Origin: Candidatus Borrarchaeum weybense
Lineage (GTDB): Archaea > Asgardarchaeota > Sifarchaeia > Borrarchaeales > Borrarchaeaceae
Direction of reading: 5' to 3'
DNA length: 64,000 nt
Assembly (NCBI GenBank): GCA_019057385.1
Contig: JAHQJS010000006.1
Location: forward strand, 224,001-288,000
The notes under the pieces are model-generated. The model was not told the DNA's origin, made no database searches, and worked only from the letters and a program-made list of their open reading frames with translations. The translations under genes and the position numbers were made by a program. Below are positions 4,361-37,009 of this stretch, in pieces. Every line of letters starts with the position of its first letter. The first letter of the stretch is position 1.

Positions 4361-5170
4361 TCATTTTTGTCTACGAATCGAAACATCGCCAGAAAAAATT
4401 TTTTCGAAAGAGCCATTATCAAGTTTAAGAATTAATGCACCACTAGCTTGATCTACATCTATCGCTTTTCCGTCAATTATTCTATTATCCATATAGACAC
4501 GTACATCTTCATTTAAAATACAGGATAATTCTTTCCACTCTTCTAGAATAGGAGAAAATCCCTTTTCTAGAAAAACTAAATACGATCTTTCAAATTCATT
4601 TAATAAACACGTGATGAATTCATTGCGATTAACAGATTCTTTTAATTCACTCTTAAGAGTTGTTGCAGTTTTCTGAATTTCAGCGGGTAATTTGTCTTTG
4701 TTAAAATTTGCATTTATTCCAATCCCTACAACAACGTAATGAAGTACATCCGTTTCGGATTCCATTTCAGTTAAGATACCACAGATCTTTCTATTGCTAA
4801 CTAAAACGTCGTTAGGCCACTTAATTTTTGCATCTAAACCTAAATTTCGAATGGCAGTAGCAACTGCTATTGCACCAATGAATGTTAGTTTTGGCGCTTC
4901 TTGAGGAGCCAGTCTTGGTCGCAATATTAAAGAAAGCCATATGCCTCCTGGAGGGGATTGCCAAACCCTCCCAAGACGTCCTCTGCCACTGGTTTGAGTT
5001 TCAGCTAGAACTAATAATCCTTCTAAAGCACCTTTTCTCGCTAATTCTTTAGCAATATCATTGGTTGATCCGGTTTCATCGAAATAGCGTATTTCCCTGC
5101 CAATAAATTCTGTACGAAGTCTATCCTTTATGATGTCTGGTGACAAAAAGTCATTCGTCAATGAAATCAC
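4361..5170 (-). CDS. birA: Biotin--protein ligase
   Basis: STND, QTSGRGRLGR, IKWPND, KICGIL and GIGIN motifs. Confidence 0.95.
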   Translation of the reverse strand: MISLTNDFLSPDIIKDRLRTEFIGREIRYFDETGSTNDIAKELARKGALEGLLVLAETQTSGRGRLGRVWQSPPGGIWLSLILRPRLAPQEAPKLTFIGAIAVATAIRNLGLDAKIKWPNDVLVSNRKICGILTEMESETDVLHYVVVGIGINANFNKDKLPAEIQKTATTLKSELKESVNRNEFITCLLNEFERSYLVFLEKGFSPILEEWKELSCILNEDVRVYMDNRIIDGKAIDVDQASGALILKLDNGSFEKIFSGDVSIRRQK

Positions 5171-29516: not shown

Positions 29517-30801
29517 AGAATCACCTCAAGAATATTCACTATGAAGTGGGGATAGGAATTGTGTTCTAAGCGAAATTCGGGTTAAGATCGTACAATCTTC
29601 TTTTTTAGCGTTTTGCGTTAGACGTTTTCCGGTTTTTAGACAATGCAGGCTTAAACGATTTTTTAGATTACCACCGATATAACACAACCCTAAGGTTTTA
29701 TGAGTTACGAGTGTTCCTTTTTTCAGCCCAAGTGATAGCGTACCACCATATCTTCTTTTTATGCCCCCTTTCGCGAATTGAAAACGATGTAACTGTCTCC
29801 TGTGAAATTGTAGCGGTGTTATATAGTAAATACTTATTGTGGTCGGAAATTTTGCTCTGGTTGTAGCGGCTGCCAGTACCCAGGCATCTACACAATGAGT
29901 TTCAAAGATAGGTTGTGATTTGCTCTTCTTTTTGTGCAATCCAAAGTGTTGTCTTAACTGCTGTGTCTCGTTCCCTTGTGCTAGTATCACATTTAATTTA
30001 AGTTTTTGTAACTCGCTATAGAAATACCACTTGCCCACTTCTAATGGGCTAAAATTAGTGTTCCATCTCTTATGATGTCTCTTTTTTGTAACTGCTTGAA
30101 TATCCTCTACCACCACGTTTTGGATAGGAATGATAGTGCAGAGTTGTTTGATGATCCTTAGTTTTACATCCCATCGTGCTCTGGTGGATGGTGGTAACCT
30201 ACGTTGATTTGCTATTCGGTTTTTCTTGTTTTTTCTACGGCGAGTATTCCTTTTTCGGCGTGCCTTCCGCGCATTTCGTCTTTGTTCGACCTTTCTTTTC
30301 ACCCAAGTTATCGCTTCTGACATGATATTGACTACCGTATCACCTGTACCAACGATTGAGAACCCTTCGTACTTCGTACCTGGATCTACTCCAATGGCGA
30401 GCGGTTGTGTGACGGGTATGTGTGGATCGAATTGTAAATGAAGATAAAAGATGCCTATTTTATTCCGTTTCTTGATGGCCTTTCCTTGAGCAATGAGTTT
30501 TCGAGCTTTTGCAGGTCGACACGGCATTAATGGAGTGCCATTTTTACTAACGACAGGTATTCTACCGATTGCGGTCTCCCTGTCAGAGTCATGTTTCCCT
30601 TCGCCAGGGTATATAGGACATAGTCTAGTACTATTGTTGCTAGACTTGGAATTAAGTGATTCTTCCGAAGCGGGCTGGACTAGGGAGGCATCCAACCATT
30701 CTTGTAGTCCTATACACGTAGTTCCCGAAGAACTGAGGCTAGTCAACTCTTGCGTTGGTATCACCATCCCATGCCCTGTCCTCTTGGACAGGGTAGCTGA
30801 C
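29517..30801 (-). mobile_element. IS200/IS605-family non-autonomous OMEGA element (omegaRNA + IsrB, no TnpA)
   Basis: One end begins GTCAGCTACCCTGTCC-AAGA-GGACAGGG (hairpin). The other end, CAATTCC...ATTCTTGAGGTGATTCT, abuts ATGAA (TAM-like). Confidence 0.85.
29526..30569 (-). CDS. isrB: IsrB (RRXRR/PLMP-domain RNA-guided RuvC nickase, no HNH)
   Basis: GTPLMPCRPAKAR, RuvC-I GVDPG, Arg-rich bridge helix, LPPS, RuvC-II VVEDI and RuvC-III HCVDA; no HNH; core about 347 aa. Start uncertain (ATC after GGGAGA; the frame is open to 30815). Confidence 0.85.
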   Translation of the reverse strand: MGRIPVVSKNGTPLMPCRPAKARKLIAQGKAIKKRNKIGIFYLHLQFDPHIPVTQPLAIGVDPGTKYEGFSIVGTGDTVVNIMSEAITWVKRKVEQRRNARKARRKRNTRRRKNKKNRIANQRRLPPSTRARWDVKLRIIKQLCTIIPIQNVVVEDIQAVTKKRHHKRWNTNFSPLEVGKWYFYSELQKLKLNVILAQGNETQQLRQHFGLHKKKSKSQPIFETHCVDAWVLAAATTRAKFPTTISIYYITPLQFHRRQLHRFQFAKGGIKRRYGGTLSLGLKKGTLVTHKTLGLCYIGGNLKNRLSLHCLKTGKRLTQNAKKEDCTILTRISLRTQFLSPLHSEYS

Positions 30802-32809: not shown

Positions 32810-35233
32810 TCATTTTTTTTGGTTTTTGGCATTTGAGATAAGAAGCTTAAATTTTGGAAGTATCAAGACCACAGAAAGATAGAATAGCACACCAACTAAA
32901 CAAAGAATTGAAATTGGATATCCAATAGGAACGTTCTCTTCAAATCTTAATGTTATTAGATGCTCGCCTTCTGGCAATTCTAGAGTAATAATACCAAATT
33001 TGTTTTCTTTGATATTAATCTCTGTGGAATCTAAGTCTGCCTTCCAATTAGGGAAGATCCCATACTTCACAAGAAGTATTCCACCATCTGAAGATTGAGC
33101 GTTAATAATTAAAGCTGTTGGGTTTATTGATACGAATTCTGCAGTACCTATACTATTCGGAAATAAAGTATCAGCGTCGTCAACGATTTCGACCATTGGC
33201 CTGAAATATGGATTTTGCAGGATACTTATATTGGAGTTCTCGTAGAACCTGATTTTTTGCCATCCATTAAGTAGCCATTCTGCATCATTTTTTTGCCTTA
33301 CAATCAAATACTTTAAACTTAAGTATCCAAGTTCTTTAGTCAATGATGGGTTCAAACTAACACTGTTTTCCAAAGATCTTGAGGCTGTCCACCACTGGGG
33401 TCCTTCTACCTCATAAAATTCAGTTTTTGTTATTGATTCGCCCCTGCCTCGCCCGTATAGATCACTGATGCGATAAAGACCAGTGTCGCTGGACTTAATC
33501 CACTGTAAAGCATTCAAATAATCCTCATCTTGGGGAAAGTACTCCCATTTATAGGCGCCTGTATATGGCCACATATCCACTAGAATTAAAAGGACGGTAA
33601 TTACAAGAATCCAGTGGCTTAAACGAAACTTGAAATTCCTTTTAATCTCAAACGCTTTTGCTTTCTCATAGAAAGTACTTACAACTATGCCTGTCAAATA
33701 AGCGATGGAAATTGAAGCGGGTAACAGAAATCGCCATGGCCACTTAAAGAACGAAATTAATGGAACATAATAATAAATAAAAACGCTAGGATAATCTGCT
33801 AGAATAAGAGAAATAACAAGAAGCGCCATAAAAAACTTTGTTTCATTATTTTTAGAGTTCTTATCCTTTGGCTTTATGAAAAACGCAAGTAAAGCAAGTC
33901 CCAAAGAGACTGTACCTATATAGAATGGCATTTCGCCCGCTATACCGATTTTCGACCCTCTCATCCGCCACCAAAGCTCTCTCGTGTAAAGCTGTGGTAG
34001 ACTGACAAAATGCGAAGCAGGATAACCTCCAGTCGATAAAGCGACTTCGTTACTCCATAGAATCGTGGACGTCTGTGTATACGCAGGTATAAGCCACCAT
34101 GCTGTTAATCCTAGCCCTACTCCAATGGGTACGAAATACATAGCAACCATCAAAAATGCTCTATTTACAGTAAGTTGATGGGAGATAAGTTCATCTAGAA
34201 GCGAATAGATTAAATACATAGTGATAATGTAGACAGAGATATACGCTGTCGGTAAATGCGTCAAGATCAATCCTGCGAGGAAAATACCTGAGAATATTGC
34301 TTTTACTAAACGCCTATTCGAATCTGTTTTAAGAGATTCTCTTGAAAGGACGAAAATAAGAGGCACATACATGTAACCCATTAATTCCGTAAAGGTACCT
34401 CTATAAAATGCTGTAGTAAGATGGAGTCCAATGAAAGTAAAGGATATCGCGGAGATACTTGCTACAATGCTATCCTTTGAAATTTTTTTGGTCATATAAT
34501 AAACAGAAAGAGCGCAAAGGATGAACGAAGTAACAATTGCACCCTTTAGAGCTTGAAAGGTGTTTAAAAACCATGAAAAAGGGAATGTAAAATAATAACC
34601 AAGAAAATGATAGAAGCGAAACAATGCCAGACCGCCAATTCCGTTCCAAGGATCGAAAGGGGAATATATTATGCCTTCTCTCCAGTATCGGAACATAACC
34701 CATACATTGCTTACATGATAGGTAAGGTCATGACTCTCTGGAAACCCTGGCTTTGTTAAAAAAGTATGAGTTGGAAGAATAGCTAAAACGACAAGAATAA
34801 CGATAATTATAACTTCTTTTCTTCTTCGCGAATTTTCCAAATAGGACTGAAATGGAAATAATGGAAATGTATACAATAACGAAACGAATATTGTTACAAC
34901 ACAAACGATACCCAAGAGAATATAACTTGGAGGGGTATATGGGGCGCCATAGGTTGTAAGAAGAAATATTGTTAAAAAGACAGCCATTAGAGTAGCGAAG
35001 AACAAGAAAGGACGCTCTAATAACTTCTCAGAGTTCCGATAAAGAAAAAACCCCATAAAAAGAGCAAGTACTCCTAAAACAAACGCCTGAAGTATATAGA
35101 TCGTTCCATCCAAAGGAGAAAAGGAAAATTTCATAAGCAAAGCGAGAAGTACGCCCATGACTAAAAATACAGGATAATAAATAAACTGCTTCATCAAATC
35201 AAATAAACGAGTTTTTTTTATATTTGACGTCAT
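32810..35233 (-). CDS. Polytopic GT-C-like membrane protein (PTPS-related/YfhO-like, probable glycosyltransferase)
   Basis: More than 12 TM helices; SHDLTYH, GIGGLALFRFY, THL, AWWLIP and WPWRF; C-terminal FPNWKA extracellular domain. Confidence 0.65.
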   Translation of the reverse strand: MTSNIKKTRLFDLMKQFIYYPVFLVMGVLLALLMKFSFSPLDGTIYILQAFVLGVLALFMGFFLYRNSEKLLERPFLFFATLMAVFLTIFLLTTYGAPYTPPSYILLGIVCVVTIFVSLLYTFPLFPFQSYLENSRRRKEVIIIVILVVLAILPTHTFLTKPGFPESHDLTYHVSNVWVMFRYWREGIIYSPFDPWNGIGGLALFRFYHFLGYYFTFPFSWFLNTFQALKGAIVTSFILCALSVYYMTKKISKDSIVASISAISFTFIGLHLTTAFYRGTFTELMGYMYVPLIFVLSRESLKTDSNRRLVKAIFSGIFLAGLILTHLPTAYISVYIITMYLIYSLLDELISHQLTVNRAFLMVAMYFVPIGVGLGLTAWWLIPAYTQTSTILWSNEVALSTGGYPASHFVSLPQLYTRELWWRMRGSKIGIAGEMPFYIGTVSLGLALLAFFIKPKDKNSKNNETKFFMALLVISLILADYPSVFIYYYVPLISFFKWPWRFLLPASISIAYLTGIVVSTFYEKAKAFEIKRNFKFRLSHWILVITVLLILVDMWPYTGAYKWEYFPQDEDYLNALQWIKSSDTGLYRISDLYGRGRGESITKTEFYEVEGPQWWTASRSLENSVSLNPSLTKELGYLSLKYLIVRQKNDAEWLLNGWQKIRFYENSNISILQNPYFRPMVEIVDDADTLFPNSIGTAEFVSINPTALIINAQSSDGGILLVKYGIFPNWKADLDSTEINIKENKFGIITLELPEGEHLITLRFEENVPIGYPISILCLVGVLFYLSVVLILPKFKLLISNAKNQKK

Positions 35234-35289
35234 CTTTTTGATGTTTCCCCTAAATTCTAAGGATATAGAACCGGTCTAAACCTGTCCAC

Positions 35290-35360
35290 TCATCAGCGTA
35301 ACTATAAGCGATCATCCTCAAAATTTGAGCTCACCCTTGCCAGTTAACTTCATCTGATTT
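35290..35360 (-). ncRNA. Double-guide C/D-box sRNA targeting 23S rRNA H69 and H71
   Basis: C box CAGATGA (35356-35350), 15-nt guide, D' GTGA (35334-35331), hairpin spacer, C' AGGATGA (35318-35312), 15-nt guide, D CTGA (35296-35293). Guides are antisense to GTAACTATAA and CCTTGCC.GTTAA. Confidence 0.8.
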
Positions 35361-35408
35361 TGGGGTTTGCAGATATTGCATTTATCTAAAATTCAGAAAT
35401 TACTGAAA

Positions 35409-35815: not shown

Positions 35816-36490
35816 CTAGCCGTTTATGAATTGTTCTGCGATCTTACGCCTCACACCATAAAAAATTTTCAAAATTTCTTTTTTTACAAGTCCAGCTAAA
35901 GGCTTATTCAGACGAGTGAAGAGCTCAATGCGAGACATTTTATGTTCATTTGCAATTTCATAAATAGATTTGTTTCCATTGCATGATTCAAGAAGTGCCC
36001 ATTCTTCTCGTGATAATTTTGCTAGTTTCTTGGTATTAACCTCTTGAGTGATCGGAATGCGACAAATCGGTCTGAAAGTTTCTCTTAATGTCTTCTCGAA
36101 ACACAACATCAAAAAATTTTCAATTTTTTCAAAATCCGAAATATCTCCAGACCAATCGTCAAGAACTTGACTGTACTTGATTGAAATTAACTTAGCTGCG
36201 GTAGAAATATCTTCTTCTAATAGAATTGGTGAAGTAAGCACATCCGAGAGAGCAACAACTATGAAATTATGATTTTCTCCCCACTCAAAGACAAATTTTG
36301 TATCACCAGAATCAATCTGTTCAAGTTGGCCATTACCTGAGGAAACCACTTCAGAAATGAGAGAACTAATCCCACTCAACGCCCCACTAACTAAATCTTG
36401 ATCTACACCGTTCATGTATTCTTTACATAAAGAACATGAGTAAATTGTCCTTCCGTCCTTATAGATTATGTAAATCGAATATAGTCCCAT
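35816..36490 (-). CDS. Longin-like domain plus winged-helix domain protein
   Basis: IYIIYKDGRTIY, DLVSGALSGISSLISEV and WSGDISDF (longin-type); C-terminal LESCNGNKSIYEIA wHTH. Confidence 0.65.
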   Translation of the reverse strand: MGLYSIYIIYKDGRTIYSCSLCKEYMNGVDQDLVSGALSGISSLISEVVSSGNGQLEQIDSGDTKFVFEWGENHNFIVVALSDVLTSPILLEEDISTAAKLISIKYSQVLDDWSGDISDFEKIENFLMLCFEKTLRETFRPICRIPITQEVNTKKLAKLSREEWALLESCNGNKSIYEIANEHKMSRIELFTRLNKPLAGLVKKEILKIFYGVRRKIAEQFING

Positions 36491-36499
36491 TATAAGACC

Positions 36500-37009
36500 T
36501 CAGCGCATTTTTTCAAGAATCCGAAGTTCATATTCACAAAATTCTTCATTTAATGCTCTACAGTGAGTTTCAACGCAATTAACGCGCCATCCCTGGGTAT
36601 CAATTAACTCTTCATAAACTAGAGAAAAAACCTCTTCAACGATACCTGCAACAAAATCACAGAGAACCCCTTCTCCCTTCTCAGAAGCTAGTGTATCACA
36701 AATGACGCACTGGAAATCGCGTATTTTAAATAGTCCCTTATTTCCAGATATCTTTGGAGAACTTTCAAAAATTTTTTTCCATAAAACTTTGATTAGATTC
36801 TTTATTGTACCATCTTTTAACGGTGCTTTGAGTTTCATGAGTTCCTTGGGAAACACACTGTATAAAATTTCCTCTCCGAAATTCTTTCCCCTTAATTTTA
36901 ATTCCCTGCGAACATCTATGAAAGATTCGTTATACCTATAGAGATGTTTAATAAATAAACCATACATGATAGGTAAAATACGCCGGTTCATCTCAGACAG
37001 AAGCTTCAC
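36500..37009 (-). CDS. V4R / TRAPP Bet3-like domain protein
   Basis: GKNFGE, LWKKIF, CVIC, CDFVAGIVE and ETHCRA...CEY. Confidence 0.7.
   Translation of the reverse strand: MKLLSEMNRRILPIMYGLFIKHLYRYNESFIDVRRELKLRGKNFGEEILYSVFPKELMKLKAPLKDGTIKNLIKVLWKKIFESSPKISGNKGLFKIRDFQCVICDTLASEKGEGVLCDFVAGIVEEVFSLVYEELIDTQGWRVNCVETHCRALNEEFCEYELRILEKMR

Follow-up and report, generated by a model that had tools for sequence, protein, structure and literature searches.

The DNA analyzed here is a 64,000-nt window of the Candidatus Borrarchaeum weybense genome, corresponding to C6:224001-288000 of a 4.18-Mb, 8-contig assembly (G000). Within the window, positions 35702-35409 of the minus strand encode ribosomal protein L35Ae (rpl35Ae; Pfam Ribosomal_L35Ae, E 1.4e-18), with the stop codon at 35411-35409. 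About 50 nt 3′ of this stop codon, on the same strand and in intergenic DNA, lies a short element whose parts follow one another in the order C box, guide, D′ box, hairpin, C′ box, guide, D box. Both the layout and the coordinates had been given correctly in a sequence-only reading of this DNA. Because rpl35Ae lies on the minus strand, the candidate RNA is a minus-strand RNA as well. The database records closest to this rpl35Ae belong to MAGs named Candidatus Borrarchaeum yapensis, Candidatus Sifarchaeum marinoarchaea, and Promethearchaeota, which places the organism in the Sifarchaeia/Borrarchaeota group of Asgard archaea. We assign minus-strand positions 35357-35290 as a complete double-guide box C/D sRNA of ~70–74 nt, with a probability of about 0.9.

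The coordinates that follow all refer to the minus strand. The RNA opens with the 5′ half of a terminal stem, UCA (35357-35355), which pairs with its 3′ half, UGA (35292-35290), located directly 3′ of the D box. This 3-bp stem adjoins a 3-nt K-turn bulge, GAU (35354-35352), whose AU doubles as the start of the C box. The C box, AUGAAGU (35353-35347), is read in the canonical register RUGAnGn, as set by the family alignment, and is followed by the 12-nt D′ guide UAACUGGCAAGG (35346-35335) and the D′ box GUGA (35334-35331). At the column of the D′ box, xUGA or xxGA is kept throughout the family. A linker hairpin, CUCAA/UUGAG (35330-35316), is predicted by RNAfold and would close the C′/D′ K-turn. 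The C′ box, AUGAUCG (35315-35309), lies 12 nt from the D box, and its AUGA is invariant in 46 aligned homologues. The 12-nt D guide CUUAUAGUUACG (35308-35297) leads into the D box CUGA (35296-35293), which was read from the sequence and takes the forms CUGA, CCGA, CGGA, and UUGA across the family. The 3′ half of the C box (AGU) and the D′ box (GUGA) diverge from the consensus; the RUGA core of the C box is intact. Both spacers, C to D′ and C′ to D, measure 12 nt, and the published range for archaeal C/D guides is 10–12 nt (PMC7994747).

The AUGAnnn register with 12-nt spacers was adopted because the family alignment, the box pairings, and the stem positions all fit it. A register in which GAUGA is read as the 3′ part of the box, giving 15-nt spacers, was excluded by the family alignment, by the pairings of C-box position 6 with D-box position 1 and of C′ position 6 with D′ position 1, and by the positions of the stems. 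The folding energy of the sRNA alone is ordinary (z -0.57), which is expected for the C/D class and adds no support. At gathering thresholds, Rfam recognized no C/D family in the whole window, and a permissive scan of the locus returned SNORD28, GlsR7, and Afu_335, all of them sub-threshold. The sole Rfam family in the window is HEARO/omega-RNA at 30588-30801 (minus strand; 83.2 bits versus a cut-off of 83), a match that marks an IS200/IS605-type IscB/IsrB element.

Genomic context and RNA evidence

A TATA-like element, TTTAGATAAA, occupies positions 35390-35381 of the minus strand, 28 nt upstream of the C box, and is a candidate promoter of the sRNA. The four species of the genus share both this element and its spacing, and similar AT-rich stretches are found 27–38 nt upstream in other families. 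The gene rpl35Ae stands directly upstream on the same strand in four congeners (g1), in one genome of a second Sifarchaeia family (G005, f2), and in one genome of a distant family (G026, f13). In the other families examined, it is not directly upstream of the sRNA. Because the TATA-like element is conserved and the linkage to rpl35Ae is missing in most families, we favor, with some reservation, the reading that the sRNA is an independent gene that would be transcribed from its own promoter.

The sRNA could alternatively be cut from the 3′ UTR of the rpl35Ae mRNA, which would make it an archaeal counterpart of a ribosomal-protein-hosted snoRNA. Its position behind rpl35Ae on the same strand, the retention of this order in the six genomes named above, and one RNA contig that reaches 14 nt upstream of the mature 5′ region are all in keeping with such processing. 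However, this origin sits poorly with the genus-conserved element upstream of the C box and with the placement of the sRNA away from rpl35Ae in most Asgard families. Moreover, no RNA contig bridges to rpl35Ae, the longest diverging at 35372. We consider processing from the mRNA unlikely. On the same grounds, the analogy that the sequence-only reading had drawn to snoRNAs in ribosomal-protein host genes is weak, as the sRNA is intergenic and lies behind a TATA-like element. Conservation behind rpl35Ae, to which that reading had also looked, holds for the four congeners, G005, and G026, and does not extend to the other families examined.

Downstream of the sRNA, window positions 32810-35233 (minus strand) encode an 807-aa multi-pass membrane protein, and upstream of rpl35Ae, positions 35816-37009 (minus strand) encode proteins of 224 and 169 aa. 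None of the three has a Pfam match at E 0.001, and the order of their genes is conserved within the genus.

RNA evidence for the locus was drawn from metatranscriptomes. Four runs have sequence words in common with the locus. Contigs were obtained from three, each belonging to a different study; run X18 gave none, which weighs neither for nor against the RNA. The contigs cover 35251-35372, 35284-35354, and 35297-35357, without mismatches. They are Logan contigs at a depth of 2–3, which place the element in RNA libraries but reveal neither strand, ends, nor abundance, and in which DNA carry-over is possible. None covers rpl35Ae or the downstream gene, although gaps in such contigs do not imply absence. 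One contig is permuted, running from 35320 to 35354, through three extra letters, and then from 35284 to 35349, as would be obtained from a circle of ~74 nt. The permuted junction is known from this single contig, and its extra letters match the 5′ flank of the congeners, unlike that of G000, so the contig probably derives from a close relative. Archaea are known to make circular C/D sRNAs (PMC7994747; also PMC3326292 and PMC9014305). The Asgard sRNA is probably at least partly circularized, and its transcript probably extends to ~35284, given that the permuted contig joins 35284 to 35354.

Guide pairing with the genome's own 23S rRNA

The LSU rRNA gene of this genome lies at C5:335393-340196, on the same contig as the SSU rRNA gene (C5:332567-335232). 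When aligned with the genome's own LSU rRNA, the D guide forms 10 of 10 Watson-Crick pairs with GUAACUAUAA in the H69 loop, without interruption, through guide positions 2–11. The earlier proposal that this guide is antisense to GTAACTATAA in the H69 loop is therefore exact. The nucleotide opposite position N+5 is the second A of GUAAC, at LSU 3408. The D′ guide pairs with CCUUGCCGGAUAA through nine contiguous base pairs, followed by an A·A mismatch at position 10 and three further pairs. The nine-pair run spans positions 1–9, which include N+5, and contains six G-C pairs and one G·U pair, at position 8. Its N+5 nucleotide is the G of CCUUG in a strand of H71, at LSU 3440. For the D′ guide, the site named in the sequence-only reading was right, but the duplex is weaker than had been claimed. 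The quoted target CCTTGCCAGTTAA is the perfect complement of the guide, and the genome's own LSU rRNA reads CCTTGCCGGATAA, which places the mismatch before the last three pairs. This is the weakest D′ duplex in the family; relatives have 10–13 clean pairs. Complementarity that covers the fifth position amounts to 10 nt for the D guide and 9 nt for the D′ guide, as compared to a guide-length threshold of at least 9–10 nt. The two predicted targets are spaced 32 nt apart in the genome's own LSU rRNA, with the D′ site downstream.

The significance of these matches was assessed with 20000 shuffles of both guides against rRNA. A D-type match appeared anywhere in rRNA in 320 of the 20000 shuffles and a D′-type match in 3988, whereas both matches fell within 100 nt of each other in only 2. 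The D′ match by itself is not unusual, because 20% of shuffles do as well. A search for tRNA targets, which covered the 17 tRNAs found, gave no convincing duplex and only G·U-rich matches.

Two further observations concern the targets more broadly. The same genome has, at C4:457845 (minus strand), outside the window, a 13-nt sequence perfectly complementary to the D′ guide (CCTTGCCAGTTAA) and thus a better partner for the guide than the rRNA site; chance alone would give ~0.4 such matches in the genome. In addition, the rRNA genes (C5:332567-340196) exceed the archaeal models in length, at 4804 versus 2987 nt for the LSU and 2666 versus 1478 nt for the SSU, an excess that implies large insertions, either introns or expansion segments.

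On an E. coli 23S record, the two target nucleotides fall at 1911 and 1943. This record is 2 nt short upstream of H69, and the numbering was therefore anchored on U 1911, 1915, 1917, and 1939, which are known to be modified. With this anchoring, the equivalents are A1913 and G1945, the two nucleotides that had been predicted from the rule of five nucleotides upstream of the D box. The 32-nt spacing found here equals the difference between 2288 and 2256 in yeast numbering; the match assumes that there is no indel between the yeast sites, in agreement with the yeast sequence. In yeast, snR63 guides Am2256 and snR75 guides Gm2288 (PMC5199042), and because yeast psi2258 equals E. coli 1915 (PMC2794176), Am2256 equals A1913. 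The correspondence to these two yeast marks, also part of the earlier proposal, is upheld by both sources together with the spacing.

The genome encodes the proteins that such a guide would need. Fibrillarin (306 bits) is present next to a gene with a Nop domain, Nop5 (225 bits), and there are two L7Ae-family genes (100 and 59 bits). In the proposed mechanism, L7Ae would bind both the C/D K-turn and the C′/D′ K-turn of the sRNA, and Nop5 and fibrillarin would complete the RNP. The two 12-nt guides would then anneal to neighboring segments of the nascent 23S rRNA, and fibrillarin would 2′-O-methylate the nucleotide that faces guide position five, counted upstream from each D-type box. The predicted methylations are at LSU 3408 (A1913; yeast Am2256) and LSU 3440 (G1945; yeast Gm2288), and both these and the assembly of the RNP are deduced from sequence.

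A crude pattern scan of the genome was also carried out. It returned 55 C/D-like candidates, as compared to 14 in the reversed genome, and 12 candidates with a strong rRNA match, as compared to 1. The scan is too unspecific to give the size of the repertoire. Further C/D-like candidates outside the window are found at C5(-) 221662, C7(-) 269398, C6(-) 761840, and C8(+) 79343, where minus-strand values count from the end of the reverse-complemented contig. Several of the scan candidates look like further unannotated C/D sRNAs.

Conservation and covariation in Asgard archaea

A BLAST search of 40 relatives detected the sRNA in every one of the four congeners and in two further families. With a sequence model made from 8 homologues, matches were obtained in 57 of 151 genomes sampled across the Asgard phylum. 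Of the 48 model matches that were aligned, 46 contain both guide motifs, and these 46 represent at least 14 GTDB families. The model had no match in four families that are each represented by several genomes; these are sampled and partly incomplete MAGs, and absence of the sRNA is not implied.

Covariation between guides and targets was examined in ten genomes that have both the sRNA and the LSU region. At the variable position of the H69 loop, an A in the rRNA is matched by a U in the guide in four genomes (G000, G026, G016, and G101), and a G is matched by a C in two (G005 and G012) and by a wobbling U in one (G040). The D′ guide follows its target in the same manner. In G026 and G016, guide GUCCGACAAG pairs with LSU CUUGUCGGAC; in G101, guide ACCUGACAAG pairs with LSU CUUGUCAGGU; and in G012 the D′ guide forms 13 of 13 pairs with LSU CCUUGCCGGAUAA. 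The D′ pairing of G005, all D′ pairings of G101, and the choice between the two LSU copies of G101 were made by hand. The G101 MAG contains two different LSU fragments for this region (L073 and L074), one of which alone fits its guides. The other looks like the LSU rRNA of a different organism, and the bin is thus probably contaminated.

One family, f8, keeps a mismatch. The H69 loop is UAACUCUGA in three of its LSU sequences (L066, L067, and L069), and each of its five sRNAs (L050-L054) has an A opposite the C in question, giving a conserved C·A mismatch at guide position 8, although other positions are compensated.

The box elements covary as well. All spacers in the 18 distinct box sets are 12 nt long, apart from a few of 13 nt. 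A pair between C-box position 6 and D-box position 1 is present in 15 of the 18 sets (12 G-C and 3 A-U), and one between C′ position 6 and D′ position 1 in 16 sets, as U-A, C-G, A-U, or G·U. Two lineages have a perfect AUGAUGA at the C-box columns. Terminal stems are found in nearly all lineages and are built from unrelated sequences, such as CCCG/CGGG, GGACUC/GAGUC, and AUGAGCGU/ACGCUCAU. The linker hairpin likewise occurs in most lineages with unrelated sequences, and a few lineages have a short loop instead. These box-pair and stem patterns fix the register of the boxes and are what would be expected of a K-turn-forming guide RNA under selection.

The LSU rRNA of two Asgard genomes carries insertions exactly between the two target sites. 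In G016 (L072, ~1571-1670), 49 nt are inserted after CUCUUAA, and in G063 (L075/L071) an insertion of ~820 nt is present at or near the same place. If these insertions are introns, both guide duplexes would flank the splice site.

The comparison with relatives bears directly on the role of the D′ guide. In G000, the D guide alone might direct methylation, with the weakened D′ guide acting as a tether or folding chaperone for H69–H71 or being inactive. The G·U and A·A positions in a duplex that is clean in relatives, and the ease with which shuffled guides reach its quality, lend themselves to this interpretation, and chaperone roles have been proposed for dual guides (PMC4644070). However, the contiguous run of pairs is rich in G-C and includes N+5. 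The D′ guide is also identical in two congeners, the other two differing by two changes at its unpaired 5′ end, and guides across the family remain directed at the same D′ site through compensatory changes. A guide that works through its D half only is thus improbable, and we retain the reading in which both guides would direct methylation. That the box motifs and the rRNA complementarity arose by chance in an AT-rich spacer containing no functional RNA is effectively refuted by conservation and covariation: ATGA and CTGA are frequent at 37% GC, and the crude scan finds its 14 candidates even in a reversed genome, but the joint guide match is already rare among shuffles, guides, boxes, and stems covary across the families, and RNA contigs from three studies are confined to the sRNA element.

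Relation to known guide RNAs

Archaeal helices 68, 69, and 71 are methylation hotspots, with dense predictions around E. coli A1912 (PMC4644070). Among the guides reported there is IHOsR91 of Ignicoccus hospitalis, which was detected by RNA-seq (Dennis et al. 2015, BMC Genomics 16:632, PMC4644070, Additional files 1 and 3); the supplements carry its label, I91, in the H69 as well as the H71 alignment block (PMC4644070). We recomputed both of its duplexes. The D guide (AUCAGAGUUACG) forms 10 pairs, with the second A of GUAAC at N+5, and the D′ guide (...CUCGGCAAGC) forms 11 pairs, with the G of CCUUG at N+5. IHOsR91 is therefore a double guide with the same order of guides as the Asgard sRNA and the same two aligned targets, 32 nt apart. 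It also has a hairpin-like linker and spacers of 12–13 nt, and its guide and box sequences closely resemble those of the Asgard sRNA. The two RNAs differ in that IHOsR91 comes from a hyperthermophilic crenarchaeon and the Asgard sRNA from a sediment archaeon. In addition, the C box of IHOsR91 is the canonical AUGAUGA, and its guides fit its own rRNA variants, UAACUCUGA and CCGGGUAA. Compared by guides and boxes, common descent of the two RNAs is plausible.

Other archaeal guides share one target each. Sac-sR113 of Sulfolobus acidocaldarius has the same N+5 target at the A1913 equivalent, and TtesR130 of Thermoproteus tenax has the same N+5 target at the G1945 equivalent; in both cases the second guide points elsewhere. 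Both of these targets lie in the known H68–H71 methylation hotspot. The Asgard sRNA is thus an already described archaeal double-guide type at a known hotspot, and its new aspect is the Asgard-wide member. The claim in the sequence-only reading that one archaeal sRNA covers two sites guided separately in yeast stands as a prediction, but the arrangement is not new, as IHOsR91 has the same guides. A literature search found no described Asgard C/D sRNAs, within a coverage that is incomplete and does not prove that there are none.

The predicted targets of the Asgard sRNA are the same two rRNA nucleotides that are modified under the guidance of SNORD46/snR63/GlsR7 and snR75 in eukaryotes (PMC5199042, PMC2794176, PMC6461891, PMC11427974), and published reports assign the H69 target to GlsR7 of Giardia, snR63, and SNORD46 alike (PMC6461891, PMC11427974). 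Eukaryotes use two separate snoRNAs for these sites, whereas the Asgard sRNA is one double guide. The Rfam model of GlsR7 gives a local match to the sRNA over the C′ box, guide, and D box, at 11.1 bits versus a gathering threshold of 75 (E 6.6), and the SNORD46 and snR63 models give no match up to E = 10. The eukaryotic RNAs are also longer and nucleolar, and many are intronic. The target varies so little that similarity between guides cannot separate descent from convergence. Tentatively, the H69/H71 double guide of Asgard and TACK archaea might descend from a single ancestral guide RNA that predates eukaryotes, with SNORD46/snR63/GlsR7 and snR75 as its separated halves, a scenario to which we give a low probability. 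If it is true, the ancestral double guide would be one of the few guide RNAs that can be traced from archaeon to eukaryote.

H69 makes up the central intersubunit bridge of the ribosome and contacts the A-site tRNA, and the adjacent strand of H71 is also at the subunit interface. The H69 site is methylated in humans too. In this setting, our result is confirmatory and holds no surprise. The alignment of 46 sequences, together with the working model, provides a validated seed for the annotation of Asgard C/D sRNAs. In the mesophilic Asgard archaea of sediments, a single guide RNA has been retained for the two positions, with guides that change in step with the rRNA. These data support the view that the two marks are old and under selection, rather than thermophile-specific.
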